This document shows, one piece after another, positions 27,242-47,539 of a stretch of 64,000 nt of DNA (position 1 is the first letter of the stretch; each line of letters begins with the position of its first letter). Position numbers and translations under genes: made by a program. Below the pieces are notes generated by a model. That model was given only the letters and a program-made list of their open reading frames with translations, ran no database searches and was not told the origin of the DNA. The stretch is from the NCBI GenBank assembly GCA_023898465.1, contig CP060223.1:896001-960000 (forward strand). Reading direction: 5' to 3'. Origin of the DNA: Candidatus Nomurabacteria bacterium. GTDB lineage: Bacteria; Patescibacteriota; Patescibacteriia; HK-STAS-PATE-3.

Positions 27242-27243
27242 GC

Positions 27244-29895: not shown

Positions 29896-29945
29896 TAGTG
29901 TGTTCCTCGTGGAACAAACGGATGGGAGGCCTAAATTATCTAACG

Positions 29946-30021: not shown

Positions 30022-30073
30022 ATGTGAACTACGGATATTTTAAGCTTCTTTTCTCCGTACCTGCCTCAGCCTT

Positions 30074-30145: not shown

Positions 30146-30325
30146 AGGGGCGGCGGCAGGCAATTTTCTTTTACCCGAGATTTTGTAACTTTTGTAAAAA
30201 GTTATTTTTTTGCTAGCCTTTGCAAAAAATAAGCGTCGTAGAATATTATGTTAAAAATGCATCTAAGTTACGAGCCATTATTACACCAAGTGGCCATTTT
30301 CGCAATGCCTAAAGAGCCAGATCGA

Positions 30326-30796: not shown

Positions 30797-31567
30797 ATGT
30801 ATTGTTACCTGTTTGACACCTTTCTCCGTGAAAGGCAGTACGAAAAAAGCGTACATCGCGTTGAAGCGCGAATCGCTGAGCTTGGCTTACAAGGAAAAAC
30901 TGAGCGGCTCAGCATTCTAAAAAACGCAGGTGAAATAGTTCGCGATGCAGTTAAAAAAGGTGTACAAACTTTTGTTATTGTTGGCGACGATAGCACGATT
31001 CAGAAAGTATTAACCTATGTAGCCGAAGAAAAGGTTACCTTGGGAATTATTCCTCTCGGTACAAAATTAGAAATAGCTGACATGCTTGGTATTCCGCACG
31101 GAGAGGCTGCTTGCGATACACTTTCGAAACGAGTTATTCAATCACTCGATCTCGGCCGAATAAACTCTCAATACTTTTTACGCTCACTCGATATTCAGAG
31201 CAATGCGGTGCAACTTGAAAGTGATCAAGGGTACACAATCTCTCTTCAAGACCCGGAAGCTAAAATTCAAATTGCTAACTTTCTTCCTATGCAAGATGAA
31301 AGGGGAAAAGCAGGCGACCCATCAGATGGAACGCTTGAGGCAATTGTTTCAGCCTCGCCGAAAAAAGGTTTCTTTACCTCGCTTCGTGGACAGTCTGATC
31401 ACCCTAGCATTTTCCCATTCCGCAAAGTAAAAGTGACGTGTCGCGATGCCAGCGTCCCTCTGGTAGTGGACGGGGAAGGGATAGTAAAAACTCCAGCCCA
31501 AATAGAAGTAGTACCACATTGTTTGCGGGTGATCGTCGGAAGAGCGCGGCATTTTGCTCAGGCATAA
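30797..31567 (+). CDS. diacylglycerol-kinase-catalytic-domain lipid kinase (YegS/BmrU-like)
   Basis: FVIVGDDSTIQKVL...LGIIPLGTKLEIADMLGIP. Confidence 0.7.
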   Translation: MYCYLFDTFLRERQYEKSVHRVEARIAELGLQGKTERLSILKNAGEIVRDAVKKGVQTFVIVGDDSTIQKVLTYVAEEKVTLGIIPLGTKLEIADMLGIPHGEAACDTLSKRVIQSLDLGRINSQYFLRSLDIQSNAVQLESDQGYTISLQDPEAKIQIANFLPMQDERGKAGDPSDGTLEAIVSASPKKGFFTSLRGQSDHPSIFPFRKVKVTCRDASVPLVVDGEGIVKTPAQIEVVPHCLRVIVGRARHFAQA

Positions 31568-31655
31568 GCTCTAGGAAAAAAAACTTTCGCCTAGCCCGTG
31601 TGAACATGGCATTCACATTGTCTTTTCTTAAAATATCTTGTATAATATTCGCGTA

Positions 31656-32537
31656 ATGAAAGCAAACGGAACAAAAAAACTTGTACGAAAAGCAGTGATT
31701 CTGGTGGCCGGGTATGGTACCCGATTTTTGCCTGCCACCAAAGCACAGCCAAAAGAAATGCTTCCAGTTATTGACACGCCAGCTGTTCAGCTAAGTGTTG
31801 AGGAAGCCATTAATGCCGGTATTGAAGATATTGTGCTCATTACGGGATCCAGCAAAAGAGCAATTGAGGATCACTTTGATGCAAATACTGACCTGGAAAA
31901 TCGATTACGCCAGCAAAAGAAACATGCGCAACTAGAGAGCATTACACGGATTCAACGTCTGGCAAATTTTATTTACGTTCGACAACCTCAGCCGCTCGGA
32001 AATGGTCATGCCACCTTAATGGCTGAAGCAGCGATTGGAAACGAACCTTTTGTTTTACTCTACCCGGATGACTTAATTGTTTCCAAAAAAAATTCTATCA
32101 AGGAAATGATTCAGGTCTACGAGGAATTTCAAGCGCCAGTTATGGGCCTCTTACACGTAGAGAAAAAAGATGTAACAAAGTACGGCATTGCCAAAGTCAA
32201 CCACATCCGTGAACATATCTACGAAGTCTCTCAGGTTATTGAGAAGCCAACTCTCGCACAAGCACCTTCTCAGCTCGCCTCATTAAAAGGCTTTGTTTTC
32301 CCTCCGATAATTTTTGAATACTTACGCAAAGTACGACGCGGCAAAGATGGAGAAATATGGCTGCCAGATGCCGTAGACCTTTATAACAAAAAACATGCCG
32401 TCTTTGGTTGTGAGCTTAATGGTGAAGTATTTGATCTTGGTTCTAAGCTAGGCTGGTTAAAAGCAAATGTTTCTTTTGCGCTTAAGCGACCAGAGCTGCG
32501 TAAAGAATTCCGCGCCTATCTCAAAAAATTAGTCTAA
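31656..32537 (+). CDS. galU: UTP--glucose-1-phosphate uridylyltransferase
   Basis: KAVILVAGYGTRFLPATKAQPKEMLPVIDTP. Confidence 0.9.
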   Translation: MKANGTKKLVRKAVILVAGYGTRFLPATKAQPKEMLPVIDTPAVQLSVEEAINAGIEDIVLITGSSKRAIEDHFDANTDLENRLRQQKKHAQLESITRIQRLANFIYVRQPQPLGNGHATLMAEAAIGNEPFVLLYPDDLIVSKKNSIKEMIQVYEEFQAPVMGLLHVEKKDVTKYGIAKVNHIREHIYEVSQVIEKPTLAQAPSQLASLKGFVFPPIIFEYLRKVRRGKDGEIWLPDAVDLYNKKHAVFGCELNGEVFDLGSKLGWLKANVSFALKRPELRKEFRAYLKKLV

Positions 32538-32545: not shown

Positions 32546-33937
32546 ATGCGACGTTACGTCATTCTCATAGGTATCGTACTCATACCGGTTCTGGCCGTAT
32601 TTATTATCGTGTCCGGGGTTATTAATAAACCACAGCCAAATGTACAGGACGTACCATTAACCTTTTGGACAGTACAAGATGACACAAGCGCCTTTACTGA
32701 CGTGATCGCAGCATATCAGCAAGCCCACCCCTACATTACCATCGAGGTCGTACAAAAGCGTGCTCAAGATTATGGTGAGGCACTTATTCAAGCATGGGCA
32801 CGTGGGGACGGGCCTGATATTTTTTCTCTCCCTAATGCAGAGGTTGGAGAATATGCTGACTTTATTGCCCCATTACCTGAGGCAACACAGGTCTATCAAT
32901 ATCAGAACAAACGCGTGCTTCTCAGTAGGCAGCTTGTGATTACACCGGTCACTTCAAGCTCTATCACCCCGGCCCGCCTCAGTAATGACTATGTAGATGT
33001 TATTGCCAGCGATGTTATCCGAGATGGACAAATATATGCACTCCCATTAAGCGTAGACACCTTAGCAGTCTACGTTAATCGCAACCTTCTAAACACTGCT
33101 AATATTGTTTCACCGGCAACAACCTGGCAAGAGCTTATTTCCCAAGTACCTGATCTCACTATTTTTGATGCGCAAAATAATATTATTCAATCTGGGATCG
33201 CACTTGGAACGGCTGAAAATGTTTCCTACTCAGCTGAAATACTCTCACTGCTCATGATGCAAAACGGTACACAAATGACTGACCCAACTGGAACACGTGT
33301 GCAATTTGATCAGGGAACAAAAGAATATAACGCGGGTGAACGAGCTGTTGATTTCTACACCGACTTCTCTGACGAAACAAAAGCAGTCTACAGCTGGTCA
33401 GGGGATAGCTCACACTCAATTGATAGTTTTATCGAAGGTAAGACTGCCTACTTAATTGGCACCTTAGCTGACCAGGCAACAATTCAGGAGCAAAACCCGG
33501 CACTCCGCTATGACATCGTGCCAATGTTCCACATCAATACCGATGGAACCGACACCAGCGGCAGCACGGGAACGCGTACAAAAATTAACTACGCAAAATA
33601 CTGGGTGCAGACAGTGGCAAAAAATTCCGCTCATAGCAATGAGGCTTGGAATTTTGTGCAATACATGAGTCAGTCAGGCGTCGTCGAGGCATATCTCAAC
33701 GCCAGCGGACGTATTTCTCCTCTCCGAAAAATATTAGCACAACAAGTGAATGTGCCGGCCTTACAAGTCTTTGCCAATCAAGCGCTCACTGCGCAAAATT
33801 GGTATCATGGAAACAGCTGGACACAAACTGAAGGCTATCTCAAGCAACTCATCACCGTTGTTGCTGAAAAAACAAAGTTGCCGTTGGAGGCTTTAAGCCA
33901 AGCTGCTAAACAAGTGCAGCTCACCTTTACTGAATAA
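32546..33937 (+). CDS. extracellular solute-binding protein (sugar-type ABC SBP fold), N-terminal TM anchor, no cognate permease or ATPase nearby
   Basis: LTFWTVQDDTSAFTDVIAAYQQAHPYITIEVVQK...GDGPDIFSL pattern of family-1 SBPs. Confidence 0.7.
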   Translation: MRRYVILIGIVLIPVLAVFIIVSGVINKPQPNVQDVPLTFWTVQDDTSAFTDVIAAYQQAHPYITIEVVQKRAQDYGEALIQAWARGDGPDIFSLPNAEVGEYADFIAPLPEATQVYQYQNKRVLLSRQLVITPVTSSSITPARLSNDYVDVIASDVIRDGQIYALPLSVDTLAVYVNRNLLNTANIVSPATTWQELISQVPDLTIFDAQNNIIQSGIALGTAENVSYSAEILSLLMMQNGTQMTDPTGTRVQFDQGTKEYNAGERAVDFYTDFSDETKAVYSWSGDSSHSIDSFIEGKTAYLIGTLADQATIQEQNPALRYDIVPMFHINTDGTDTSGSTGTRTKINYAKYWVQTVAKNSAHSNEAWNFVQYMSQSGVVEAYLNASGRISPLRKILAQQVNVPALQVFANQALTAQNWYHGNSWTQTEGYLKQLITVVAEKTKLPLEALSQAAKQVQLTFTE

Positions 33938-33940: not shown

Positions 33941-34924
33941 ATGTTACGTTTACCCTCAACTCGATTCTGGATCATCTCGGGTTTAAGCATGCTTATTGTA
34001 CTTGGCGCAGTAATACCTGCCCGAGCGGAGATCTTACCAAACTGCGAAAAAACACTTTACAAAGTTGAGCTCAATGGAGATCTCGATTGCCCAGATGGAA
34101 CAAACAATTGTATTGATCCAAATGATTACATACAAACTGTACACGGTGATATCGAACAGGTAATGGTCAACCGGAGCTGTGGTTTCAATGACTTCATTCA
34201 GCTCTTTGTGAATCTCGCAAACTGGGGCTTGGCTATTATGGGTGCCCTGGCTGTTTTCTTCTACATGTACGCGGGCTTCCAATTCTTAACTGCCGGCGGT
34301 CGGAGCGAGAATGTCGAGCAGGGTAAAAAAATTCTCTGGGGCACCACTATGGGAGTGATTATCATGCTGACTGCGTGGGCCGTTATTGGTTTCTATATTG
34401 TTGCTACAACTGGCAGTAACCAAGGCTTTGTTTTTCCTAATGATCCTAACTTCCTAGCCCCTTGGTTTGGTCAGACCGAAACTTGTCGACAGACCTATAT
34501 AAAAAATTACGACCAATCTCAGTGTGGACAAAACAATCTTCATATAAACTGTTCAGACCCGATTGATGGAAGCGATGGACCTGTTACTCGTTTGCAAAGC
34601 ATACTTACTCAGCGAGCTTGTAACCCTGGAGGAATAGACGGCTGTTTTGGTTCAAACACTGAAAGTGGGCTCCGACAATTCCAGAGAGTGAATTGGCGCA
34701 GTGGAATTATTGAAGACGGGGTAGTGAATGCCGATGATTGGAGCACCCTACTCAACACTTCTACTGCGTATGATTGTTCAGTCCCGCTAGGTTGCTGCAT
34801 CAATCCTGATGAACCGAGTCTTTGTTATGATCAAATTCCAGAGGCCTACTGTAACCAGAATGGTTGGACCTTCCTACCAGATAGCTGTGCGAGTTACGAC
34901 TTTGACTGTGAAGGACCAAGTTAA
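33941..34924 (+). CDS. T4SS-pilin-like (TrbC/VirB2-type hairpin) membrane protein fused to a Cys-rich domain and a peptidoglycan-binding-like domain
   Basis: Signal peptide (...IPARA/E). Hairpin motif YAGFQFLTAGGRSENVEQGKKILWGTTMGVIIMLTAW. C-terminal GCFGSNTESGLRQFQRVNWRSGIIEDGVVNADDWSTL resembles the PG_binding_1 pattern. Contains 20 Cys residues. Confidence 0.6.
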   Translation: MLRLPSTRFWIISGLSMLIVLGAVIPARAEILPNCEKTLYKVELNGDLDCPDGTNNCIDPNDYIQTVHGDIEQVMVNRSCGFNDFIQLFVNLANWGLAIMGALAVFFYMYAGFQFLTAGGRSENVEQGKKILWGTTMGVIIMLTAWAVIGFYIVATTGSNQGFVFPNDPNFLAPWFGQTETCRQTYIKNYDQSQCGQNNLHINCSDPIDGSDGPVTRLQSILTQRACNPGGIDGCFGSNTESGLRQFQRVNWRSGIIEDGVVNADDWSTLLNTSTAYDCSVPLGCCINPDEPSLCYDQIPEAYCNQNGWTFLPDSCASYDFDCEGPS

Positions 34925-34937: not shown

Positions 34938-35300
34938 ATGAATACACTACGAAAAAAACGCTTACCACTTATTCTCATGATCGCCGGACTCGTCCTCATG
35001 CCGCTGAGCGCCTTTGCGCAAAGCGGCTCGGCTGTAGCCATACCTAACCCGATTTCGTGTGGTAACTTAATTTGTCTCTTTGTAAACCTCATGCGCCTTA
35101 TTCTGGCCGGCTTAGGTGTCTTTGGCATGGTGATGTTTATTTGGGGAGGCTTTCTCATGCTTACTTCTGCGGGTAATGCTGATCGAATTCAAAAAGGAAA
35201 AGAAACCTTAGTGTGGTCAATTCTTGGTATTTTAGTAATTCTCGGCAGTTGGATACTCCTCAAATCAGTGATTGATGCAATTAACGGGGTTACTAACTAG
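34938..35300 (+). CDS. T4SS-pilin-like small membrane protein (120 aa)
   Basis: Signal peptide ...SAFAQS. Hairpin IWGGFLMLTSAGNADRIQKGKETLVWSILGILVILGSW. Confidence 0.6.
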   Translation: MNTLRKKRLPLILMIAGLVLMPLSAFAQSGSAVAIPNPISCGNLICLFVNLMRLILAGLGVFGMVMFIWGGFLMLTSAGNADRIQKGKETLVWSILGILVILGSWILLKSVIDAINGVTN

Positions 35301-35385: not shown

Positions 35386-35751
35386 ATGAAACAACGTACA
35401 CGACTGCTCGGCACACTAGCAGCATTTGCTATACTAGCACTTCCGTTGCTTGTTTCCGCCCAATCTGCTTTCACCGTAGAAAACATCGGTGGATCAGTTG
35501 GTCTCGGTACTGCTGACCTCAAAGATACCGTCATCAACATCATTCAATGGGTGCTTGGTATCCTCGCACTCGTTGCTGTCGTTATGATCATCATTGGTGG
35601 TTTCCAGTGGATGACTGCTGGTGGAAACGACGAAAAGGTGGAAAAGGCCAAGAAGATTATCTCAGCCGCGGTAATTGGTCTTATTATCATCTTGTTGGCT
35701 TGGGCTATTGTCATCTTCGTCGCAAATACAACGGCGAATGTCACTACCTAA
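35386..35751 (+). CDS. T4SS-pilin-like small membrane protein, paralog P1 (121 aa)
   Basis: SD GGGGGTGA. Signal peptide ...VSAQS. Hairpin IIGGFQWMTAGGNDEKVEKAKKIISAAVIGLIIILLAW. Tail ANTTANVTT. Confidence 0.7.
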   Translation: MKQRTRLLGTLAAFAILALPLLVSAQSAFTVENIGGSVGLGTADLKDTVINIIQWVLGILALVAVVMIIIGGFQWMTAGGNDEKVEKAKKIISAAVIGLIIILLAWAIVIFVANTTANVTT

Positions 35752-35777
35752 TCCAATCACGTATTTGGACTTTTAGA

Positions 35778-35808
35778 ACATACCCAGCTCACTGCTGGGT
35801 ATGTTTTT
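35778..35808 (+). terminator. rho-independent terminator of P1
   Basis: 11-bp stem acatacccagc/gctgggtatgt, 5-nt loop, then tttt. Confidence 0.8.
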
Positions 35809-35873
35809 ATTCAAAAAAGCCTTACTATGCTATAGTAGTATATATCTTTGAGAAGAAGAGGGGGTGAATATAC

Positions 35874-36230
35874 ATGAAGAAAGCTTTAATCGCAGTCGGT
35901 ACTTTGGCGCTCGTTGCTATGCCAATGCTTGCATCAGCCCAATCTGCTTTCACCGTTGAAAACGTTGGAGGATCCGTCGGTCTCGGTACCGCTGATTTGA
36001 AGGACACCGTCATCAACATCATTCAATGGGTGCTTGGTATTGTCGCCTTAATCGCTGTCGTTATGATCATCATTGGCGGTTTCCAGTGGATGACTGCTGG
36101 TGGAAACGACGAAAAGGTGGAAAAGGCCAAGAAGATTATATCTTCAGCCGTAGTCGGTTTGATTATTGTGTTACTCGCCTGGGCAATTGTTGTATTCGTT
36201 GCAAACACAACCTCAAACGTTACCGCCTAG
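35874..36230 (+). CDS. T4SS-pilin-like small membrane protein, paralog P2 (118 aa)
   Basis: SD GAGGGGGTGA. Near-identical to P1 and P3. Tail ANTTSNVTA. Confidence 0.7.
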   Translation: MKKALIAVGTLALVAMPMLASAQSAFTVENVGGSVGLGTADLKDTVINIIQWVLGIVALIAVVMIIIGGFQWMTAGGNDEKVEKAKKIISSAVVGLIIVLLAWAIVVFVANTTSNVTA

Positions 36231-36249
36231 CGTACACTTCGCAAATTCT

Positions 36250-36286
36250 GCAAAAGCCCTACCTTATACGAGGGCTTTTGCTTTTT
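36250..36286 (+). terminator. rho-independent terminator of P2
   Basis: 11-bp stem gcaaaagccct/agggcttttgc, then ttttt. Confidence 0.8.
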
Positions 36287-36356
36287 CTGCGCAACTTTTA
36301 TTTTTCATGGTATACTGAATGCATTACATCTTTAGGTAAAGGAGGTGAATGTCAGA

Positions 36357-36725
36357 ATGACCATAAAACGATTTCTTCCCTTAGCGCTACTCGGACTTAC
36401 CTTGGTATTACTGCCTTCTACTGTAGCAGCTCAATCAACCGCCTTTACGATCGAAAATATTGGTGGATCAATCGGTCTCGGTACCGCTGATTTGAAGGAC
36501 ACCGTCATCAACATCATTCAATGGGTGCTTGGTATCCTTTCATTAGTAGCCGTTGTTATGATTATTTTTGGTGGCTTTACCTGGATGACTGCCGGAGGTG
36601 CTGAAGATAAAGTTGATCAAGCCAAGCGTATTATCACCGCTGCAGTAATTGGTCTTATCATCATCTTGTTGGCTTGGGCTATTGTCATCTTCGTCGCAAA
36701 TACAACGGCGAACGTTACCACTTAG
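36357..36725 (+). CDS. T4SS-pilin-like small membrane protein, paralog P3 (122 aa)
   Basis: SD AAAGGAGGTGA. The ATG at 36357 is preferred over the GTG at 36345. Tail ANTTANVTT. Confidence 0.7.
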   Translation: MTIKRFLPLALLGLTLVLLPSTVAAQSTAFTIENIGGSIGLGTADLKDTVINIIQWVLGILSLVAVVMIIFGGFTWMTAGGAEDKVDQAKRIITAAVIGLIIILLAWAIVIFVANTTANVTT

Positions 36726-36743
36726 GCTACACTAGAATCAAAA

Positions 36744-36780
36744 CACAGACCTCTCCATATTTGGGGAGGTTTTGTGCTTT
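36744..36780 (+). terminator. rho-independent terminator of P3
   Basis: Stem core cctctcc/ggggagg with flanking extension, followed by a T-rich run. Confidence 0.65.
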
Positions 36781-36809
36781 TGGCTGACTCCGCTACACTA
36801 TGAACGCAT

Positions 36810-38816
36810 ATGTCTAAAATACCGGATAGAACACAGGCCTGGCTGCTAGGAATGATGATCTGTATGATTGTTATCTCTTTTGCAGGTCAATACGTAAAAT
36901 GGCAAAGTCTGGCCTATAACGGACTCGATTTGGGTATTTACACTCAAGTAGTATCAGAAACCAGCCAAGGGAATTTCTTTGGCTTCACCATTCACCCGCA
37001 CTCCTACTTGGGTGACCATGTTGAATTTTTACTATTACTCCTTGTGCCTCTTTTTTGGATTGTGGCTCATCCACTCTGGCTCTTGGCCGCACAAAGCCTT
37101 GTGTTGGCTTTAGGCGCTATCCCTATATTTCGCCTTGCACGCAAAAAACTAAATGGTAACTGGGCTCTAGGTTTAAGTGCAGCCTACCTTTTTTCGCCTT
37201 TCCTCTGGAATGCAAACATGTATGAATTTCACATGTTAGCTTTTGCAATTCCAATCTTACTTGCGGCACTACAAACCTACATCACTAAATCACTCAAGTG
37301 GCATTGGCTTTGGCTGGCTTTGGCCTTGCTCGTACGAGAAGATGTTGCCTTTGTAGTATTTGGCATTGGTATTGTGGCTGCAATTGAGCGGAGGAATTGG
37401 AAATGGTGGCTACCCACCTTTTTGGTTAGCGCTGCCTGGTTTGGATGTAGTATTTATCTCGCTGGATCCTTGGGCACTTTGGGTGAATATAAATTTCTCA
37501 AATACTATGGATGGCTCGGCCCCGATCTTGTTTCTATTATCGGAAACTTTTTTGGACATCCCTGGCTCGTACTCCAACGCGTGCTTCATCCGCAAGCGCT
37601 TGCTTTCTTGCTAGGCCTAGGACTCCCTTTTGCCTATTTGCCAATCTTCCGACTTCGTTGGCTTATCCCGATCTTACCTATCTACTTACAACTTTCTCTC
37701 TCAGGAGTTGCGCGAGAAATCTCACTAGAAATGCACTACGTGAGTTTGTTCTTACCATTTCTCTGGATTGGCTCTATTGAGGCAATACACAAACTTCGTA
37801 GTGAAATGGGAAAAACTCGACGAGGAAAATTTATCCAAGAATACGCCGGGGTTATTGTTAGCGTACTCGCTGTTGTGGCAATATATTGCTTCATCGTAAT
37901 CGGTCCGATTCGCGGCCTGGCACAAACCTGGTATCGACCAGATACGCAACGTGAACATGAACAGTTAGCCAGAGATGTGCTCAACATTGTACCCGATACC
38001 ACACCTCTCGCAACTGGATATCGCTTTATTTCATGGACAGCCACTCGACCCGTGTTGTACTCCTTGCACTATCTTTTTATTGGCCGGCAACAATATAGCG
38101 ATGAAAGTTTCCCACTTGACCCTAGCATCCAAACGCTGCTCATAGACCAAAGTGATTTTGTTACCTATCAATCAGTCTATCCGGAAGATAATACCGACTA
38201 CAAAGGTGGTGCCCAGCGCTTCCGCGATCTCATTGAAGAAAGAAAGCTTCAGCTCAATCTCATGGTTGACGATCTCTTGCTCTATACAAACACCCATACT
38301 ACATCCCAAAAAGAATTAGTGCGTATTGGAAATGAAGATCAACTAAGACAAAGCCTCTTTCAGACAAGCAACGGACTCATCTTGCACTCCTGGGAGAATA
38401 ATGAAGGAATCAACAAACTTCAAAGTGAATATGTGCATATTAACACGCACAACTACCTCACCCTCCCGCTCTCGTTTATCTGGTCTCAGCATGAAATAAC
38501 AACGCGTCATAATACCGTACTACTCACACTGACTCGGGGAGACGGCGCAGTGTATCAAAAAGAATATCCCATCGCCCCGCTCTGGCCGCAATCAGAGTGG
38601 CCATTAGATACTCCAATGATTACGCAACACCAATTTCTCATCCCGACCGACTTCGCCCAAAGTGATACCCAGATAGCAATGGATGTGATGTCGATTCGGG
38701 GTCGATTAAGTTTGGATACCCAACGCTCTATCGTGCCTCGCTACGATGAACACGACTCCTTGGGCCACCTTAATCTCGGAAATCTTATTCTACCGGACGC
38801 AAGCGATACAGAGTAA
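36810..38816 (+). CDS. DUF2079-family polytopic membrane protein (putative glycosyltransferase)
   Basis: N-terminal YNGLDLGIYTQVVSETSQGNFF...HPHSYLGDHVEF pattern, about 12 TM segments, and a large C-terminal extracytoplasmic domain. Confidence 0.65.
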   Translation: MSKIPDRTQAWLLGMMICMIVISFAGQYVKWQSLAYNGLDLGIYTQVVSETSQGNFFGFTIHPHSYLGDHVEFLLLLLVPLFWIVAHPLWLLAAQSLVLALGAIPIFRLARKKLNGNWALGLSAAYLFSPFLWNANMYEFHMLAFAIPILLAALQTYITKSLKWHWLWLALALLVREDVAFVVFGIGIVAAIERRNWKWWLPTFLVSAAWFGCSIYLAGSLGTLGEYKFLKYYGWLGPDLVSIIGNFFGHPWLVLQRVLHPQALAFLLGLGLPFAYLPIFRLRWLIPILPIYLQLSLSGVAREISLEMHYVSLFLPFLWIGSIEAIHKLRSEMGKTRRGKFIQEYAGVIVSVLAVVAIYCFIVIGPIRGLAQTWYRPDTQREHEQLARDVLNIVPDTTPLATGYRFISWTATRPVLYSLHYLFIGRQQYSDESFPLDPSIQTLLIDQSDFVTYQSVYPEDNTDYKGGAQRFRDLIEERKLQLNLMVDDLLLYTNTHTTSQKELVRIGNEDQLRQSLFQTSNGLILHSWENNEGINKLQSEYVHINTHNYLTLPLSFIWSQHEITTRHNTVLLTLTRGDGAVYQKEYPIAPLWPQSEWPLDTPMITQHQFLIPTDFAQSDTQIAMDVMSIRGRLSLDTQRSIVPRYDEHDSLGHLNLGNLILPDASDTE

Positions 38817-40422
38817 GCTCGCCTGATTGGTATACTGTCTGAAGTGCAGAAATCGCGCTTGGATCAGCCACACTATTCCGCGTATCAAATTCACCCCATA
38901 GTAAATAATCCACACTCTGCTCTCGCAACCATCTTTCAAGGGCAGTATTTCCACTTTGGCGCGCTACAATAAAACCATCTGATTTGTCATTGTAATGCAA
39001 GGTTTCAATCGGGTGTCCAAATACCACTGCCCGACCCGCCCAAGCTGGTATATAGAGATTGCCAATTTTCCCAGCTGCAAAAACTGCACGAGTATCGGTG
39101 TGTGTTTTCATCCAGTCACTCATATCTTGATAAGATTGATCGACGTAGAGGTGGTATGGCGGCTGACGAAAAGTATCATTCGTCCAAAGATGTACATCCA
39201 TGCCCACTAAAGCAATCGGCGAAAGACTAAACACTACTACGGCCAGCATTGGAGTGGCTACATAGCGAGACCAGCTTACTAATGGAAATCGCTTGAATAC
39301 TATACGAAGACCAATAAAAGCAAATAAAGCTAGGGGGAGCATCCAACCTTCAGTTAGGCGGCGACTAAAACTAATCGGCAAAAAGAAAATACATGCTTGC
39401 CCAAACAACCACGCAAGCGGCATTGCGTAGGTGCTTCGATCACGACCTAGTTGAAACAAAGCAAGAAGGGCCAGCGGAATAAGAGCGCCATAGCTAATAA
39501 GTGTGGTAAAAAAGAATGGCATAGTATTCACATTCTGAGCCGCTCGGCTATTCGCAATTGGGTCAAAAAGTATTATCCCAACTTGGTAGAAAATCATTGG
39601 CAGCGCTAGTCCTCCTACAAGAAGCGCCCCCCACAAAGCCCGTGCCGTTTTATCCCGCTGCCATAAAAAAGTGAAGAGTATAAAAAGCACAAAAACCCCT
39701 ATCACTGTTGGTAAGTGAAAGGGGTGAAAGCTCATAAGTAAAAAAAGCGACAGGCCGCTTTGCAAAAAATACTGTATTTGCTTTTGCTGCACCCCGAGGT
39801 AATACCAATGAAAAATGAGAATAAGTAATGAGGTGGCTAAAATAAAATGCGGGCTCTGATACATCGTTAAAAATGTATACGCTTCACTTACCCAGAGATC
39901 CATCGGCCAAATCGCCCACTCAATAAATCCAAAAATGTATTTAATAAAAGGATATGCAATTGCTCCAAATCCTGCAGCAAAAAGAAAAAGCAAAATAGCA
40001 AATTTACGCTCACGCCATGCCGGAAGAAAATTGCGTAAGAAAATTTCGCTCGACCATAGGAGTAAGGGGATGAGGAGGATTCGGGCTAAATGAAAACTTA
40101 CTAATGCGGAAAGGTGCAGCCACTTTGCCATATATCCAACAACAATCCAGATTGGACTGAAAATAAAAGCGTCATGCGGCTCAGCAGTAAACAAATCCCT
40201 AAGCATCACCTGTCCCTGTTTTACCTGTTCTATGTAGGAAAAATAGACCGGCAAATCACCTGGAGCCAGTGTATGTCCTCCGGTAAAAATCATCCCATCT
40301 GCCTGCATCATCCACGCGTAGAGGTAAGGGAACGTTGTGAGAATAACTAAAGCGAGGGCTATCCACCAAAACCAACGACGTGGCATTTTTTCAGCATCTG
40401 GGTGAAGAGAAAAAAACTGCAT
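38785..40422 (-). CDS. polytopic membrane protein, GT-C-fold glycosyltransferase-like
   Basis: More than 10 TM segments plus a C-terminal soluble domain. Last gene of the coupled operon. Its 3' end overlaps the convergent DUF2079 gene by 32 nt. Confidence 0.45.
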   Translation of the reverse strand: MQFFSLHPDAEKMPRRWFWWIALALVILTTFPYLYAWMMQADGMIFTGGHTLAPGDLPVYFSYIEQVKQGQVMLRDLFTAEPHDAFIFSPIWIVVGYMAKWLHLSALVSFHLARILLIPLLLWSSEIFLRNFLPAWRERKFAILLFLFAAGFGAIAYPFIKYIFGFIEWAIWPMDLWVSEAYTFLTMYQSPHFILATSLLILIFHWYYLGVQQKQIQYFLQSGLSLFLLMSFHPFHLPTVIGVFVLFILFTFLWQRDKTARALWGALLVGGLALPMIFYQVGIILFDPIANSRAAQNVNTMPFFFTTLISYGALIPLALLALFQLGRDRSTYAMPLAWLFGQACIFFLPISFSRRLTEGWMLPLALFAFIGLRIVFKRFPLVSWSRYVATPMLAVVVFSLSPIALVGMDVHLWTNDTFRQPPYHLYVDQSYQDMSDWMKTHTDTRAVFAAGKIGNLYIPAWAGRAVVFGHPIETLHYNDKSDGFIVARQSGNTALERWLREQSVDYLLWGEFDTRNSVADPSAISALQTVYQSGELTLYRLRPVE

Positions 40423-41120
40423 TACTTCTGAGAGCGAAACAATAATGCAAGAATCATTTGAGCGTATTCACGAGCAATCGTGAATGAAATTTTACTCTTG
40501 CCATATTGGCGATCCTGAAAAACATAGCCGATTTCTGTGGTCTGAAGTGGACGCGCTCGAACCAAAATCTCTACTAAAAGTTTATACCCGCGCGGACGTA
40601 AAGTATGTGCAATGCGTGTATACACATCTCGTCGTACGGCAAAATATCCGCTCATAGGATCACGCTCTCGAATACCGAGCATCACCTGAGCAATCCTAGT
40701 AGCAAACCAACTCATGGCTTGGCGTCGCAGAGGCCAACCTAACATACCGCCGCCACTAACAAAGCGTGAACCGATAGCCACGTCATTACCTAACTGCACC
40801 GCCCTAATCATCTGCGGAATAATTGCCGTATCATGCGAAAGATCGGCATCCATGCAAATAAAAATTTCTGATCTGGCCTCTTCCATACCAGCCATCAGTG
40901 CAGAAGCAAGGCCTAACTTACCTGTTCGCTCAATAACCCTGACTGGATAGTGAGCAGCCAGCGAACGAACAAGCTGAGCGGTCCCATCTGGCGAAGCATC
41001 GTCAACCACAATTATCTCGACAACCAGCTGCAAGCGGGCAATCTGTCGAAGGCACGCCTCAATGTTCTCCTTTTCATTATAGGTTGGCAGGATAATGCTA
41101 GCTTTTGGCAAGGCGCTCAT
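40422..41120 (-). CDS. polyprenol-monophosphate mannose synthase (GT2, Dpm1/Ppm1-like)
   Basis: SIILPTYNEKENI...VVDDASPDGTAQLV...CMDADLSHD. Confidence 0.85.
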   Translation of the reverse strand: MSALPKASIILPTYNEKENIEACLRQIARLQLVVEIIVVDDASPDGTAQLVRSLAAHYPVRVIERTGKLGLASALMAGMEEARSEIFICMDADLSHDTAIIPQMIRAVQLGNDVAIGSRFVSGGGMLGWPLRRQAMSWFATRIAQVMLGIRERDPMSGYFAVRRDVYTRIAHTLRPRGYKLLVEILVRARPLQTTEIGYVFQDRQYGKSKISFTIAREYAQMILALLFRSQK

Positions 41121-42406
41121 GAAGATACGGATTTGGACTGATCGCTCGACCCTGATGAAGTATAAGGCAGGGCTGCTAATAGGAAAACAAGCGCGAGGTA
41201 ACCCAGGTGTGTGTCATTAAAATACCGGGCAAAAAACCAAAAAACAAGCAGGGTAAATCCATAGTACCAGAAGATATTTTGCAGGGAAATGTCTAGTCGA
41301 CTCTTCCTCAATAAAAGGAGAAAACTCGGGATTCCAATGCAGAGAGAAAAAACCCAAAATGGGAAATGTCCGTAGGGATCAATAACATGAAAAGTTGCCA
41401 TCCACTGGGCAATACCTAAACCTGATGCTGGATAACTCAACTCAGCGCTGCCGTTTGCATACTTCCAAACGTCATCATAAAAAGCTCCTGGCGACCAGAG
41501 AAAGAAAAAACCCATAACCACAATAAGGAGAAGTAGCGAAGGAAATAATGGACGATATACTTGCCGCCAAGGACCTGGTTTCCGGCGCTGCCATACTGCT
41601 ACGAGGTAAAATGGCACAAAGAGCCAGGCGGACTGCTTCATCAGTAAAGCAAAAACCAGAGCAAATCCCGAGCTCGTGTATCTGCCTCGATAAAGCGCTA
41701 GGGCTGCGAGGAAGAGGAAAAGCAATACGGTGATGTCATTCAACCCAGCCACAATAAACTTCAACATAAATGGATTCAACGCAGTAAGGATAATTGCTAG
41801 ATCTCTCCAAGGAGCTTGCACGGTTTTTGCTAAGAGTAAGAGGAAGGCAATCCAAAAAAGTAAGTACAGCGCACGTACATCAAACCAACCAGTAAATCGC
41901 TCTAGGCTCCATTGCCACGGCGCCACGATAAGGAAAGAGCCTGGTAAATACACATAGTGCTCCCAGGCTGGATTGGGTCGCGTGCTATCAGAAAAACGAT
42001 CAGGGAACACACCAAAAGCTGTACCACGATAATCACTCGCATAAGGATTTTTACCCTGTAGGAGAAAATGACTCGCTTCCTCAGTCTGGATTGCACCATC
42101 GTGCACATATGCTTCTAGTGGACGATAAGGTCGTACCAGCATCTGCAAGGTACAGACGGTCACTAGGATGCCTATGCTTAAGATAAGGACGATCCTTGTT
42201 CGCATCTCATCTGCTGATGGGGCAAAGATAAGACTTAATCCATACGCAAACACCAGCAACAAAGGCAGGATGCCAAACCAGAAAAGTGGTGTGGGGGAAA
42301 AGAAATAACTAAAGGCCTGCTGACCTGAAAAAACCTCGGCCATCACATAAAGCACGAGGAGAAGAATGAGAACAAAAGTAAAACGTCGAATCGTGATTCC
42401 GTTCAT
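41117..42406 (-). CDS. polytopic membrane glycosyltransferase, GT87/DUF2029-like
   Basis: Loop motif HDGAIQTEEASHFLLQGKNPYASDY, many TM segments, and an ATGA overlap with the next gene. Confidence 0.55.
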   Translation of the reverse strand: MNGITIRRFTFVLILLLVLYVMAEVFSGQQAFSYFFSPTPLFWFGILPLLLVFAYGLSLIFAPSADEMRTRIVLILSIGILVTVCTLQMLVRPYRPLEAYVHDGAIQTEEASHFLLQGKNPYASDYRGTAFGVFPDRFSDSTRPNPAWEHYVYLPGSFLIVAPWQWSLERFTGWFDVRALYLLFWIAFLLLLAKTVQAPWRDLAIILTALNPFMLKFIVAGLNDITVLLFLFLAALALYRGRYTSSGFALVFALLMKQSAWLFVPFYLVAVWQRRKPGPWRQVYRPLFPSLLLLIVVMGFFFLWSPGAFYDDVWKYANGSAELSYPASGLGIAQWMATFHVIDPYGHFPFWVFSLCIGIPSFLLLLRKSRLDISLQNIFWYYGFTLLVFWFFARYFNDTHLGYLALVFLLAALPYTSSGSSDQSKSVSS

Positions 42407-44041
42407 TTACGGAGCAACTGCATAAATCTTAGCCTCCTTGTCTTCGTAGACCAGTGAGACCCCCTCTGTACCATCTACTAAACGATCCATAGCTACATGA
42501 TCTTTAGTAACAACTACGTACGATGCATGAAAAGTATCACGTAGAGTGGTACTCACCGTGCTCGGATCTGACTTCCCGGTGGTTAAATCAACCCAAGCCC
42601 AATAGCGATCTTCATCGTGGGCATACAAAAAGGTTGGATCTAAACCAGCAATATAGCGATGTGATGGATCATAGTAAAAAAGGAGTGGAAACTCATCCCA
42701 GTCACTATGTACGACAATCTCGTCTGATGGGGCATTTGCTTTTAACCAAGTGCCAACACCAGACAGGGTTGAGGCATCTTGCCCACCCGCTAGGTCGCGT
42801 CGCACATTTCGCAAGTCACGTACACCCACGCCAACCACTCCTATAACAACATAGGCGAGGATTATCACTGCGACCGTTTTTGAAAGGACGCTATGACGCC
42901 ACCCGGCCACAACATCTCGCAAAAGCGCTTTACCTGCCTTACCAGAGAGTGCGTCGCTGATGGAAAAAGCTCCAAACAACATACCAATCGGCACATAGTA
43001 TTCAACGTAGCGCTTGGACTTCAGGGTAAGCAGGAAAAAGAAAATGGTTAGCAAGAAGAGGGTCCAGGAGCGGACAGACTGCTTTCGTAATTGCAGAGCC
43101 ATACCGAATATCCCTAACACCACCACAATAGAAACAAAGATGGTGGTAGGAATAAGCTCACCGATGTGATACGGATACCACTCTCCGCCTACGCCAATGC
43201 TATGTTGCGCATTAATAATGCCAATCTTAAAAAGCTGGTATTCGTAAAATCGAATGTTGTGCGGGAAGCTAGGATTAAGCAATAGACCTGCCAGCATCCC
43301 ACCCCCAACCGCCAAACCTATGGTGATGTAAAGACGCCAAGAAGCTTCATGGTGTCGCCAACGATCATACTGCTCATGCAGACGAGTAAGGAGAGAACGA
43401 GAATCACTCTGATGGAGTATCCAATAACGGACTAAGCCCACCAGGCAAAACACCGCTGTACAAACAAGCAGCAGGGAAAATCCGCCGTATACCCAAACAA
43501 AAATCCATGAGTACACAAAAGCCCACTTTGCTCGGAAGTGAAACACCAACCATAAACCAGCCAAAAGAAGTGTCACTCCCAGAACAGGCGCTTTTGGTAA
43601 ACCCATCCGAAACATGAATGGATTCACAAACAAAAGCAACAAGGTAAATACAAATGCCCATCGCACTTGGAAGGAACGAAGGAGGCCATAGAACATGCCA
43701 GCCATCACTGCAGTGAGTAAAATAGTGGCGACTTTTATCCCGACCAGTGGATCAGCTATAGAAACAAACGGGATGAGAATAACGTGATAAAGAAAATGCT
43801 GATTAATGTAATTCTCACTCAGGGATGTAAAAGGCAGCCAGGGAAACTGCGTAAAAAAACCTTTGTCAGCTACCAGGGTTGCCATCCGAGCATGATAAAA
43901 AGAATCAGGATCAGCAAAAGCATCATGCAATTGCAAATACGATGCAATGACCAGGGCAATCATCATGATAAGCAGACCGGTCAGAAAGGGCGTCCGGCAA
44001 AAGATACGATAGATTTTATACCACCAAGCCTCCTTTTCCAT
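42407..44041 (-). CDS. polytopic GT-C membrane glycosyltransferase (PMT/ArnT-like or STT3/AglB-like)
   Basis: First-loop motif ADPDSFYHARMATLVADKG. Later motifs GGEWYPYHIGEL and VVHSDWDEFPLLFYYDPSHRYIAGLDP. About 13 TM segments and a short C-terminal soluble domain. Confidence 0.5.
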   Translation of the reverse strand: MEKEAWWYKIYRIFCRTPFLTGLLIMMIALVIASYLQLHDAFADPDSFYHARMATLVADKGFFTQFPWLPFTSLSENYINQHFLYHVILIPFVSIADPLVGIKVATILLTAVMAGMFYGLLRSFQVRWAFVFTLLLLFVNPFMFRMGLPKAPVLGVTLLLAGLWLVFHFRAKWAFVYSWIFVWVYGGFSLLLVCTAVFCLVGLVRYWILHQSDSRSLLTRLHEQYDRWRHHEASWRLYITIGLAVGGGMLAGLLLNPSFPHNIRFYEYQLFKIGIINAQHSIGVGGEWYPYHIGELIPTTIFVSIVVVLGIFGMALQLRKQSVRSWTLFLLTIFFFLLTLKSKRYVEYYVPIGMLFGAFSISDALSGKAGKALLRDVVAGWRHSVLSKTVAVIILAYVVIGVVGVGVRDLRNVRRDLAGGQDASTLSGVGTWLKANAPSDEIVVHSDWDEFPLLFYYDPSHRYIAGLDPTFLYAHDEDRYWAWVDLTTGKSDPSTVSTTLRDTFHASYVVVTKDHVAMDRLVDGTEGVSLVYEDKEAKIYAVAP

Positions 44042-44094
44042 ACGCTAAAGTATAGCATTCTCATGCCTACACGGCGAACTGCTGATTAGCGAAT

Positions 44095-45147
44095 TTACTT
44101 CAGCTGCGCTTTGAAATAATCCACCCAAGGAATCGGCGATGGATCTATGTCATGCTCCATAGCGAGCCAGAAGCTGAGATAGCCACTAAAGGTGAGGTGT
44201 AAAACTATCTCTTCTAAGCGCGACTGAGCAGAAACCTTCACATCATCAACGCTAAAGTGCTGTCGTTGAAAAACCTTTTTACTAATACCGTAACGTTTTT
44301 CATTTCGAGCATGTAAAAACTTTGAACGAAGCATGAGTACATGCAGGGCTACTTTAGGATGCGCTAAGCCCTCCATGAGGTGGTGATTTAATCCTGGGAT
44401 AGGGAAATGTAGCGCAAAATGCTTACTGTTTTCATGGAAGCGATTTCGATAGGCCAGGGCTACATTTTCTAAGTGCTCGCTCCCCACAATAAGCGGGATG
44501 CGAGTGCACAACTTCTTGGCTAACTGCAGAGTAGTATTTCGTTGTTGAGGCGCCTGCACTGACCATTGTTTACCAGCTCGTCGAGCCTTCTCTATTGCGC
44601 GATGTAATTCTGGAGTAGATACACGTAGCTGCCCAGCAGCCGCAAGTAGCCCCATAATACCAAAAAGCATGTATCCAGTACCCATGCGAGGTTGCTGGGA
44701 TGGATTATACCGTGCATCAAAAATATAGGCGGGAATTTTCCATTGCGTAGCCAACTTGGCCAATGTCCCACCCGAGGAAATAACCATGAGTTTGGCGCCA
44801 CGTTGTCGAGCCTGACGAAGCGCGCTCACACTTTCTTCCGTACCGCCTGAATAACTTGAGGCGATTACGAGAGTATCAGGACCAACATAGGCTGGAATAT
44901 CGTACTGCTCTATTACCTCAAAAGTCGCTTTTGATGAGGGACGCAAAAAATCCGCTGCGATCCGAGCTGGAAATGCAGAGCCACCCATACCAGCCACCAC
45001 AATTTTTTTCACTGCACGATAACTAGCAGGCACAGCTATGCGTGAGGATTCGTCCCAGGCTTGTGCAATCTGATCAGGAAAAGCATCGAGCGAACTTAAC
45101 ATTTGTTGCTTATCAAGTCTTTGGACTTTTTGTTGTAGTGTCATCAT
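44095..45147 (-). CDS. bifunctional phosphoglucose/phosphomannose isomerase (SIS domain)
   Basis: KKIVVAGMGGSAFPARIAADFL, SYSGGTEE, and a C-terminal region typical of the bifunctional PGI/PMI family. Confidence 0.8.
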   Translation of the reverse strand: MMTLQQKVQRLDKQQMLSSLDAFPDQIAQAWDESSRIAVPASYRAVKKIVVAGMGGSAFPARIAADFLRPSSKATFEVIEQYDIPAYVGPDTLVIASSYSGGTEESVSALRQARQRGAKLMVISSGGTLAKLATQWKIPAYIFDARYNPSQQPRMGTGYMLFGIMGLLAAAGQLRVSTPELHRAIEKARRAGKQWSVQAPQQRNTTLQLAKKLCTRIPLIVGSEHLENVALAYRNRFHENSKHFALHFPIPGLNHHLMEGLAHPKVALHVLMLRSKFLHARNEKRYGISKKVFQRQHFSVDDVKVSAQSRLEEIVLHLTFSGYLSFWLAMEHDIDPSPIPWVDYFKAQLK

Positions 45148-46487: not shown

Positions 46488-47539
46488 GTTCGATGAAACA
46501 ACAAAGTGAACAGCTCATTCATGCCACCGAGCGAATCTTTCGTGAATGTGTGCAGACAAATGGGGCTATCACTATCTCTCCTGATAGTAAACTGGTAATA
46601 CCTCATCACGCTGCTTTTGTTACTGTGGCAGCACCTTTTGTTGGTTTAGAGCTTGCTCCAGAATTTTTTGCTTGGGTTAAAAAAACTCTAGAGAATGAGG
46701 AGAATAACGGAGCCTTAAGTAATGCCTATGATTGGGAGGGAAAAGCAACCCATTCGCCAGCCCGATTTGCACCCGAACAAAACGGCGCCATGCTCTGGAG
46801 TATTGATGCCTATATTGAACGACATCCAGAGGAGCTGGCTCATATGAAGGAATTAGTAAGCCTGCTCGTGCAAGGAATTACTCAGCACTGGAAAAAAAAT
46901 GGATTTTCGCGTACTACTAATGAGGTATGGGGGGAACATCATCACATAGGAGCGCCTGAGATGAATCAGCGCTTTACATATGCCCTAGCCGCCTGTGCAC
47001 ATGGGCTTGAACGTGCGGCCGCTCGCTATAAGCAACGGCGATGGAAAGCTATTGCCGGGCAAATGCGTGAGCATATAAATAATGCCTGGGATGAAAACAA
47101 AAAGACTTTTCATCGCGCGCTTGGTAAACATAATGATACAAGCATTGATAGTCTAACTCTCGGACTTTGCTGGCCTTATCATATTTACGAGGCAAAAGAG
47201 AAACGCATGCAGGCAGCTGTCGAACGCATTGAAGAGGTGCTTATTGATGGTGGTGGAGTGCACCGCTTCCAATATGATTACCACGACAGCGAAGGGGATG
47301 CAGAAGATGGTGGTGGTATTTGGCCAGCTCTTAATTTTTGGATGAGCATCTATTTTGTTGAACAAGGCGATGAGGCAAAGGCGCGGGCTTACTTCCAATG
47401 GGTATTAGAACGCGTGCATGAAGAACTCCCAGAACAAATGTTTAAAGATTTTCGTATCGGCATTACTCCTTTTGCCTGGAGTCACGCACTCTTTCTCTTG
47501 GCTGCTCATAGTTTAAAACTTCTCCCAAATGAAGCGTAA
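46484..47539 (+). CDS. glycoside hydrolase family 15-like (short alpha/alpha-barrel, glucoamylase-related)
   Basis: FTYALAACAHGLERAA..., GGIWPALNFWMSIYFVEQGDEAKARAYFQWVLE, and FAWSHALFL. Confidence 0.55.
   Translation: MSSMKQQSEQLIHATERIFRECVQTNGAITISPDSKLVIPHHAAFVTVAAPFVGLELAPEFFAWVKKTLENEENNGALSNAYDWEGKATHSPARFAPEQNGAMLWSIDAYIERHPEELAHMKELVSLLVQGITQHWKKNGFSRTTNEVWGEHHHIGAPEMNQRFTYALAACAHGLERAAARYKQRRWKAIAGQMREHINNAWDENKKTFHRALGKHNDTSIDSLTLGLCWPYHIYEAKEKRMQAAVERIEEVLIDGGGVHRFQYDYHDSEGDAEDGGGIWPALNFWMSIYFVEQGDEAKARAYFQWVLERVHEELPEQMFKDFRIGITPFAWSHALFLLAAHSLKLLPNEA

Follow-up and report, generated by a model that had tools for sequence, protein, structure and literature searches.

VirB2-like pilins with a fixed membrane-proximal sequon, and an oligosaccharyltransferase-like protein encoded beside them, in Patescibacteria: a possible glycosylation system

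Do the bacteria of the Candidate Phyla Radiation (CPR, or Patescibacteria) glycosylate their pilins, and do they use enzymes encoded next to the pilin genes to do so? Members of this group live as episymbionts and make contact with their hosts through surface appendages. The question is raised by a stretch of 64,000 nucleotides (referred to here as the window, with coordinates counted from its first letter) from a metagenome-assembled genome (MAG) of Candidatus Nomurabacteria, corresponding to positions 896,001 to 960,000 of the forward strand of contig CP060223.1 in assembly GCA_023898465.1. It contains three small pilin paralogs, A, B and C (the pilin of the window is on record as H6760_04660), followed by genes for glycosyltransferases (GTs). 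An earlier interpretation made from the letters of the DNA (the sequence-only reading) noted that all three paralogs end in ANTT[A/S]NVT[T/A], with two N-x-T sequons directly after the second transmembrane (TM) helix, and proposed that they are glycosylated, through O-mannosylation or N-linkage, by the products of the neighboring genes.

The hypothesis of pilin glycosylation is a reasonable and plausible one that we find to be partly supported. The protein families, the fold of the key enzyme, the conservation of the motifs and the linkage of the genes are direct observations. That the major pilins are glycosylated by the adjacent mannose-based system, by either linkage chemistry, is a real possibility, to be held tentatively. 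N-linkage at one particular Asn by an oligosaccharyltransferase (OST)-like enzyme we consider unlikely, and the fuller proposal, in which a compact family of OST-like GT-C enzymes N-glycosylates VirB2-like pilins at a fixed membrane-proximal Asn, probably with mannose from a polyprenol monophosphate, is improbable in that complete form. The combination of the fold of the enzyme, the fixed position of the sequon and the persistent adjacency of the genes leads us to favor the pilins as substrate.

The tails read as had been claimed, FVANTTANVTT in paralogs A and C and FVANTTSNVTA in B, and the C-terminal peptide as a whole is ...VIFVANTTANVTT. The second sequon of pilin A comprises Asn118-Val-Thr120, at +12/+14 from Trp106 in the second TM helix (TM2). 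Because the codons of the tails differ among the paralogs mostly at synonymous positions (aat/aac, acg/acc, gtc/gtt, act/acc), the tail peptide is under purifying selection and is more than a merely recent copy. In the 120 closest database homologs (63-100% identity), the Asn of the second sequon is kept in 120/120 and is followed two residues on by Ser or Thr in 114, whereas the first sequon is kept in 26, its position being occupied mostly by Gly or Arg instead. A wider set was drawn from 80 loci of GTDB species-representative genomes, with pilin identity ranging from 85% down to 41%; all pilins were anchored on the conserved Trp/Tyr of TM2 (Trp106), and the best-matching, or main, pilin of each locus was taken, giving 75 distinct tails. 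Position +12 is Asn in 41 of the 75, position +14 is Thr in 65 and Ser in 5 more, and 40 of the 46 tail sequons start exactly at +12. The surrounding residues vary widely from clade to clade (GTTANVT, VLSNAT, IYNATSG, LLNITN, IINGTT), which argues for an old and positionally fixed N-hydrophobic-T motif. Conservation of the tail in orthologs therefore holds for the second sequon and fails for the first.

All five pilin-like proteins of the window score above the gathering cut-off of 26.6 bits for PF18895 (T4SS_pilin, for type IV secretion system), at 29.7-58.1 bits, and the score of the window pilins against TrbC (PF04956), 24 bits, lies under the cut-off of that family. Paralogs A, B and C are mutually 75-83% identical. 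From sequence and alignments, they show Gln immediately after an A-x-A cleavage site, hydrophobic stretches at ~52-73 and ~94-113 and, between these two helices, a Lys-rich loop, GGNDEKVEKAKKII. We infer that the major pilins have a cleaved signal peptide, two TM helices, a cytoplasmic Lys-rich loop and both termini external. A fourth small paralog of 120 residues, outside the three noted earlier, carries no sequon. The NRS, NCS and NTS sequons that had been pointed out in the largest pilin-like protein, of 327 residues, are indeed present but recur in 0/15 orthologs, and the sequons of the adjoining solute-binding-protein (SBP)-like protein are poorly conserved, so both were dropped as evidence. 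At two loci of the wide set, a pilin-like hairpin opens a giant open reading frame (ORF), of ~3,170 residues at L032:9995-19504 and ~3,450 residues at L035:9971-20329; a GT2 gene lies ~4 kb upstream of these ORFs, which are fusions of a pilin domain to very large proteins, presumably of the cell surface.

An enzyme that might act on such a site is to be found among the three membrane proteins of the cluster without Pfam matches (545, 429 and 544 residues), all of which are of the GT-C type; the DUF2079 protein that precedes them also has a GT-C fold. Foldseek placed twelve OST catalytic subunits at the top of the list for the 544-residue protein (E 3e-9 to 4e-7), with PMT, the protein O-mannosyltransferase family, at merely E 1e-2. 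The protein consists of a multi-pass GT-C membrane core and a C-terminal alpha/beta domain, its nearest folds being STT3B, AglB and PglB, and the N-linked option thus gains a candidate enzyme. The family is large, with 3,405 clusters at 50% identity (E <= 1e-3), and was aligned as a close set of 48 sequences and a wide set of 141.

The hallmark motifs of OSTs include the catalytic Asp of the first external loop (D56 of PglB, D47 of Stt3), a metal-binding D-x-D/E in the second external loop (D154/D156 of PglB) and the WWD motif that binds the +2 Ser/Thr (PMC7226087). The motifs of the 544-residue protein are D44-P-D46-SFYH, GGE287W, LKSxR344YVEY, SDW448D449EFP and GLD468PTF. The first of these, located just after TM1, is invariant across the close set and at least 90% conserved across the wide one; E287-W288, K341/R344, W448(-D449) and G-L-D468 are conserved family-wide. 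The S-D-W448-D449-E-F motif stands at the start of a helix ~30 residues past the last TM helix, with W448 at least 90% conserved, and the spacing from E to R is 57 residues, compared with 56 in PglB. Plausible counterparts of D56, E319, R375 and WWD of PglB would be D46, E287, R344 and W448-D449, respectively. In terms of its modeled fold, the protein is OST-like, with catalysis on N-x-S/T as a candidate function.

The genes in question occupy 31.6-45.1 kb. On the plus strand, they run in the order GalU-like, SBP-like, 327-residue pilin-like, 120-residue paralog, pilins A, B and C and DUF2079; the minus-strand unit, in order of transcription, comprises PGI/PMI, the 544-residue and 429-residue GT-Cs, GT2 and the 545-residue GT-C. 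The features are as follows.

31638..32537, plus strand: UTP-glucose-1-phosphate uridylyltransferase (GalU/YngB-like); Pfam NTP_transferase, PDB YngB 7o2n at E 6e-80.
32546..33937, plus strand: membrane-anchored extracellular SBP-like protein; Pfam SBP_bac_1 at E 1.6e-17.
33941..34924, plus strand: 327-residue pilin-like protein combining a T4SS_pilin hairpin, PG_binding_1 and external regions rich in Cys; PF18895 29.7 bits, PF01471 27.1 bits.
34938..35300, plus strand: minor pilin paralog of 120 residues, tail ...VIDAINGVTN without a sequon; PF18895 32.2 bits and alignment.
35386..35751, plus strand: pilin paralog A, 121 residues, tail ANTTANVTT at 35722-35748; PF18895 55.8 bits.
35775..35812, plus strand: terminator-like hairpin and U-run 3' of pilin A; ViennaRNA, -36.5 kcal/mol for the intergenic region.
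35874..36230, plus strand: pilin paralog B, 118 residues, tail ANTTSNVTA at 36201-36227; PF18895 58.1 bits.
36250..36290, plus strand: terminator-like hairpin and U-run 3' of pilin B; ViennaRNA, -28.1 kcal/mol for the region.
36357..36725, plus strand: pilin paralog C, 122 residues from ATG, tail ANTTANVTT at 36696-36722; PF18895 47.5 bits. Its ORF opens at a GTG at 36345; the database entry (P0029) has 122 residues, as from the ATG.
36747..36782, plus strand: strong intrinsic-terminator-like hairpin (11 pairs and a U-run) in the gap between pilin C and DUF2079; ViennaRNA.
36810..38816, plus strand: DUF2079 membrane protein of the GT-C type, C-terminal beta-sandwich domain at ~residues 480-660; PF09852, E 1e-58.
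38785..40422, minus strand: 545-residue GT-C; hhalign to the family of the 544-residue protein, no Pfam or PDB sequence match.
40422..41120, minus strand: GT2, polyprenol-phosphate-mannose synthase-like, 232 residues, catalytic domain only; Pfam Glycos_transf_2 at E 1e-34, PDB 5mlz.
41117..42406, minus strand: 429-residue GT-C, GT87-like; orthologs match GT87, the window protein having no Pfam match.
42407..44041, minus strand: 544-residue OST-like GT-C; Foldseek fold match and conserved motifs.
44095..45147, minus strand: bifunctional phosphoglucose/phosphomannose isomerase-type SIS protein (PGI/PMI); bact-PGI_C at E 3.7e-29, and SIS.

The identities that had been proposed for the downstream enzymes (DUF2079, a GT2 of the dolichol-phosphate-mannose synthase (DPMS) type, three GT-C membrane proteins and PGI/PMI) are essentially borne out. 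Together, the genes of the plus strand form a conserved envelope module made up of the GalU-like, SBP-like, large pilin-like and minor pilin genes and one to several major VirB2-like pilins. The GalU/YngB-like gene opens the block and is syntenic in most of the 80 loci. The SBP-like gene, where present, is always immediately 5' of the pilin module, and it is found in most loci that reach far enough upstream (53/80).

The genes around the block may be noted briefly. Just 5' of it lies a bactofilin gene (30380-30784), adjoining one for a lipid kinase of the DAGK/YegS type (30797-31567). Further upstream are 10 tRNA genes in ~11 kb (18993-30146), with a tight cluster at 28263-30146; a 132-residue ORF at 29736-30134 overlaps three of these genes and is likely to be spurious. 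Downstream, at 47529-55128, is an alpha-glucan metabolism cluster with starch/glycogen synthases at 47529-49004 and 52628-54130, two GH57 genes (49004-51675), of which the second ends in a C-terminal UVR motif, and then an APH-like kinase and a GalT-like gene; this cluster is syntenic in other CPR genomes. A second glycan-related group at 5220-8157 contains sugar-nucleotidyltransferases at 5220-6095 and 6152-6910, together with a 386-residue membrane protein (6997-8157) that matches the PIG-V mannosyltransferases weakly (E 3e-4, under the cut-off) and may be another GT-C.

Is the association of pilins and glycosyltransferases peculiar to this genome? In other MAGs, homologs of the pilin and of the 544-residue protein occur on common contigs at a spacing of 5-11 locus tags (as with ABIH38_05720/05750, WC528_03330/03305 and HY567_01015/00960). 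The block is found in full in Kerfeldbacteria and related groups, and synteny extends to many of the 80 GTDB loci, in the order GalU, SBP, large, minor and major pilin(s) and DUF2079, then, convergently, the 545-residue GT-C, (GT2, GT87-like), the 544-residue GT-C and PGI/PMI, and finally YebC and RuvC. The linkage predicted by the sequence-only reading is thus conserved across many Patescibacteria, and the hypothesis passes both of the tests set for it on conservation, that of the tail with respect to the second sequon only. The inner GT content varies around a constant pair, the OST-like gene and PGI/PMI, the latter being the first gene of the minus-strand unit and the steadiest neighbor of the former. 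At three loci (L038, L045, L049), this pair is all that lies between the pilins and YebC.

A broader profile detected five distant members of the OST-like family (L054:2864-4477, L060:896-2518, L069:8266-9951, L079:8287-9906 and L080:8287-9945). All keep DPD, EW[IL]P and KS[RK]R and give no match to the profiles of other GT-Cs, and in three of them (L054, L079, L080) SDWDEF is replaced by [DN]WG[GS][FY]. Each of their genes stands back to back with that of the main pilin, 5-111 bp away on its upstream side, with a GT2 alongside and within the pilin module, so adjacency to the pilin has survived both rearrangement and deep divergence. Direct adjacency is also associated with the sequon: an external sequon is present in 15/16 main pilins within 600 bp of a family member and in 10/19 with none in 8 kb (Fisher p 0.0098, not corrected for phylogeny), the figures for the +12 sequon itself being 11/16 for adjacent pilins and 7/19 for those without a member within 8 kb (p 0.09). 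As the adjacency loci represent ~4 independent clades, these p-values overstate the evidence.

How might such a system operate? The GT2 matches the Pyrococcus dolichol-phosphate-mannose synthase (PDB 5mlz_A) at E 2.2e-50 over residues 6-226; its next-best relative, ArnC, is at E 5e-12, 38 orders of magnitude weaker. At 232 residues compared with 374 for the Pyrococcus enzyme, it is without the C-terminal membrane domain. It can be described as DPMS-like, with mannose as the predicted sugar. The 429-residue protein has no Pfam match of its own, and 4/5 of its orthologs exceed the 25-bit cut-off of GT87 (PF09594), at 37.6, 27.4, 38.7 and 29.2 bits. Single-sequence PDB searches with the 545- and 429-residue proteins were empty. 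By hhalign, residues 353-542 of the 545-residue protein align with residues 342-543 of the OST-like family at 96% probability (58% against DUF2079), which makes the two proteins paralogous in their C-terminal halves; the 545-residue one does not possess the xWD (Trp-Asp) motif. Donor supply is represented in the cluster by the DPMS-like GT2, PGI/PMI and the GT87-like GT-C; no initiating phosphoglycosyltransferase or flippase was identified within the window.

In the scheme that we propose, PGI/PMI and nucleotidyltransferases would generate activated mannose (GDP-Man), which the DPMS-like GT2 would place on polyprenol phosphate. The donor would then be flipped, and the GT87-like and other GT-C enzymes would use or extend it at the outer face of the membrane. 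Finally, the OST-like GT-C would pass the sugar or glycan to the membrane-embedded pilin, with Asn+12 as the favored acceptor and Thr+14 read by the xWD motif of the enzyme; in the alternative chemistry, the threonines of the tail would be O-linked. We infer the acceptor, the site, the type of linkage and the donor of this scheme, in which modification of the pilin is a prediction, and several considerations weigh against it.

Some of these concern the enzyme. No conserved acidic residue is found at ~90-280, the location of the D-x-D/E site of OSTs, in either the 48- or the 141-sequence set. The family conserves R145 and K150 in this region instead, and D80/H82 of the first loop might substitute for the motif. 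Residue D449, invariant in the close set, is less than 90% conserved in the wider family. Neither phmmer nor the 48- and 141-sequence profiles run against the PDB, nor Pfam searches with 48 members at E <= 10, gave a sequence match to STT3, AglB or PglB. Given an OST-like fold with no sequence link and no D-x-D/E, we call the protein OST-like in fold and not a member of the STT3 family.

Other considerations concern the acceptor. Position +14 is better conserved than +12 among the 75 tails: in ~45% of ortholog lineages, Asn+12 gives way to T, D, S, K or Q with Thr+14 persisting, and Asn persists where Thr has been lost in 6/120 close homologs, so each residue seems to be constrained independently of the other. 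A sequon is present in 64/234 unique pilin tails, where shuffling gives 36.5 ± 4.8, and the reverse motif is depleted, but this excess disappears after single-linkage clustering at 70% identity (0.14 vs 0.12), which excludes a family-wide bias and leaves a clade-specific, position-specific motif. In one clade, with tails SQTxK/DVTT, there is no external sequon whatever, and a clade free of external sequons, at L012, L015, L018, L021 and L024, keeps an intact OST-like gene. Another clade without the tail sequon has instead an N-terminal external one, LGN[AE][ST]PE (L046, L050, L064, L075 and others), with QVNTS in its place in L048, L055 and L062, which may represent compensatory relocation of the glycosylation site and, unlike the other points here, speaks for the scheme. 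If the distance is relaxed from direct adjacency to 10 kb, the sequon is unrelated to the presence of an OST-like gene (14 vs 14, 12 vs 12). Finally, Asn118 is just five residues from the hydrophobic helix, a proximity about which the sequence-only reading had already been wary. Eukaryotic OST needs a minimum of ~12-14 residues between sequon and membrane, a requirement that might also apply to the window enzyme; as the catalytic site of OSTs is at the membrane surface, the closeness of Asn118 to the membrane is a concern and not a decisive one.

The organization of the genes provides the remaining considerations. Each of the small pilin genes is preceded by a strong Shine-Dalgarno sequence of its own and followed by a stable hairpin and U-run, the terminator with the 11-bp stem, at 36747-36772, parting pilin C from DUF2079, from which the pilins are predicted to be highly expressed monocistronic units, outside any glycosyltransferase operon. 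The GT genes at 38785-45147 are convergent and form separate transcription units. A single operon of pilins and GT genes was therefore rejected on the grounds of opposite strands and terminators. The 3' ends of DUF2079 and the 545-residue GT-C overlap by 32 bp (38785-38816), leaving no space for a terminator between the two. The linkage across genomes is also shared by unrelated genes, with YebC, RuvC and the glycogen genes equally syntenic, which makes synteny alone weak evidence.

Of the alternatives, the one that fares best assigns the GT-C, DPMS-type and PGI/PMI genes to the building of a surface mannan or lipoglycan, or to the glycosylation of other envelope proteins, with the pilin not a substrate. 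The N-hydrophobic-T tail would in that case serve the structure or assembly of the pilin, packing, for example, on the equally conserved N-terminal GLGTADLK or on lipid head groups, and the adjacency of pilins and GTs would reflect conserved synteny of envelope genes. In each of these parts, it is a credible, if uncertain, explanation. The independent conservation of Thr+14 and Asn+12, the retention of the OST-like gene in the sequon-free clade, the separate transcription units and the shared synteny all speak for it, and the pairing of a DPMS-like GT2 with a GT87-like GT-C follows the enzymatic scheme by which actinobacteria make lipomannan. In other genomes, the cluster gains GT87/MptA_B-type enzymes, which is how a pathway for mannan or lipoglycan would behave. 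In the expanded versions (L081-L083, on the contigs of P0184 and P0211), PGI/PMI, the OST-like gene, a SAM-methyltransferase, a GT87-like gene and a GT2 are followed by three unannotated membrane proteins (426-567 residues), a second GT2 and an MptA_B-family GT-C; the gain of such genes is typical of variable polysaccharide loci, and the inner content here is hypervariable, like that of an O-antigen or capsule locus. Set against this explanation is the company kept by the OST-like gene, which adjoins the main pilin also in a second arrangement inside the pilin module, which with PGI/PMI makes up the minimal conserved interval between pilin and YebC, and whose directly adjacent pilins carry an external sequon in all cases except one. 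The nearest folds of its product, moreover, are protein-modifying OSTs and not polymerizing GT-Cs.

A second alternative retains the pilin as substrate and changes the chemistry: the tail threonines (+9, +10, +14, +15) would be O-mannosylated or otherwise O-glycosylated from polyprenol-phosphate-mannose by a GT-C such as DUF2079, the Asn being incidental. Models exist in the Ppm1/Pmt system of actinobacteria and in PgfS/PgfM of Streptococcus mutans, and the GT2 of the window also resembles PgfS (NCBIfam E 4e-18, under the cut-off). The tail is Thr-rich, and Thr+14 is its best-conserved residue, persisting where Asn+12 is lost; the predicted donor, monophosphate-linked mannose, is that used by PMT-type enzymes and not by classical OSTs; and DUF2079 is the next gene after the pilins on the same strand. 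Set against this, no window protein matches the PMT or PMT_2 profiles or contains a MIR domain (Pfam), the sole PMT match being one ortholog of the 429-residue protein, under the cut-off. DUF2079 is absent from distant loci that retain just the OST-like gene, and Asn+12 is invariant in the close clade. We judge this explanation distinctly unlikely.

Very unlikely is the view of the tail as a recognition or processing signal for C-terminal trimming, head-to-tail cyclization (TrbC/TrhA-type) or docking of an assembly factor: VirB2/TrbC-family pilins are known to be processed and some to be cyclized (PMC12037004, PMC13434634), the predicted mature N terminus is Gln after A-x-A as in VirB2 (PMC9905601), and the motif is 1-3 residues from the C terminus in most proteins, but many orthologs tolerate 2-15 extra residues past Thr+14, no TraF-like peptidase or VirB4, VirB6 or VirD4 is found in the 64-kb window, and VirB2 cyclization is itself disputed (PMC9905601).

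If the fuller proposal, N-glycosylation of the pilins at the fixed Asn by the OST-like family, were true, bacteria would possess a further, new system of N-glycosylation, and the pilin would be the first of the conjugative type to be glycosylated. Glycosylation of the pilins by the OST-like enzyme would add a third bacterial N-glycosylation lineage beside PglB and the cytoplasmic NGT enzymes, give a function to a family whose members, membrane proteins in their thousands, are unannotated and imply that a different surface chemistry is presented to hosts and phages. Even without the pilin as substrate, the OST-like family and the DPMS/GT87 cluster would point to an unrecognized glycoconjugate, based on mannose, in the envelope of CPR bacteria. 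In archaea, AglB is known to N-glycosylate pilins, and membrane transferases encoded adjacent to their targets are well known for type IV pilins. Glycosylation in CPR/Patescibacteria has been described as unexplored (PMC11623550), and none has been reported for bacterial conjugative pili, there being just diffuse extra density on two archaeal ones (PMC9905601). No paper linking OST-like enzymes to CPR, or these pilins to glycosyltransferases, was present in the literature searched, in which DUF2079 is also unmentioned. The tail motif and the glycosyltransferase linkage, on circumstantial evidence, are best regarded as a possible variation on known forms of pilin glycosylation.

How does the locus compare with known systems? 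Arrays of VirB2-like pilins have been described in Patescibacteria (bioRxiv 10.1101/2025.01.22.634366), and, according to work cited there, they are essential in the sole system tested. The window array shares with them matches to PF18895/PF04956, a signal peptide, the two-helix hairpin and the arrangement in tandem, which in such arrays extends to 2-11 paralogs. There are differences as well. Its paralogs are 75-83% identical, compared with a mean of 25% (bioRxiv 10.1101/2025.01.22.634366), and it stands apart from virB4 and any gene of a T4SS over the 64 kb; no VirB4, VirB6, VirD4/coupling protein or other T4SS component came to light when the larger ORFs of the window were scanned with Pfam, and a T4SS context for the array was accordingly rejected. 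Neither the tail motif nor the glycosyltransferase linkage is mentioned in that report (bioRxiv 10.1101/2025.01.22.634366).

With the actinobacterial pathways of Ppm1 and Pmt, or of Ppm1 and PimE/MptA/MptB, the cluster has in common a DPMS/Ppm1-type GT2, a GT87-like GT-C and a gene for the supply of mannose 6-phosphate, as well as the MptA_B-type GT-Cs of its expanded versions. The constant OST-like GT-C is unknown in those pathways, and the window shows neither a GT39/PMT signature nor genes for a phosphatidylinositol mannoside (PIM)/phosphatidylinositol anchor. In Pseudomonas aeruginosa, TfpO/PilO acts on the C-terminal Ser of the pilin and the GT-C TfpW adds arabinofuranose, both enzymes being encoded beside pilA. 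Both modifications are O-linked and take place at the outer face of the membrane from a polyprenol-linked donor, TfpO belonging to the Wzy_C/O-antigen-ligase family. As in the window, the major pilin gene adjoins that of a membrane glycosyltransferase and a surface-exposed C-terminal region is the target, here a candidate one; the substrates in Pseudomonas are type IV pilins, unrelated in fold and assembly to the VirB2-like pilin.

A further comparison is with the GT66 enzymes, STT3, PglB and archaeal AglB, on which the N-glycosylation of pilins, archaellins and S-layer proteins depends. From these, the 544-residue protein departs in the absence of detectable sequence homology or a Pfam STT3 match, in its size (544 residues vs ~700-970), in lacking D-x-D/E and in the reduction of WWD to xWD; unlike the archaeal AglB systems, moreover, its host is a bacterium of the CPR and its candidate acceptor is VirB2-like and not a type IV pilin. 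Euryarchaeota carry their glycans on dolichol monophosphate. Like the GT66 enzymes, the 544-residue protein joins a GT-C core to a C-terminal alpha/beta domain; and, as in archaeal N-glycosylation by AglB, the candidate acceptor is a plain N-x-T without the bacterial D/E at -2, and the cluster provides a Dpm1/AglJ/AglD-type GT2 along with further GT-Cs.

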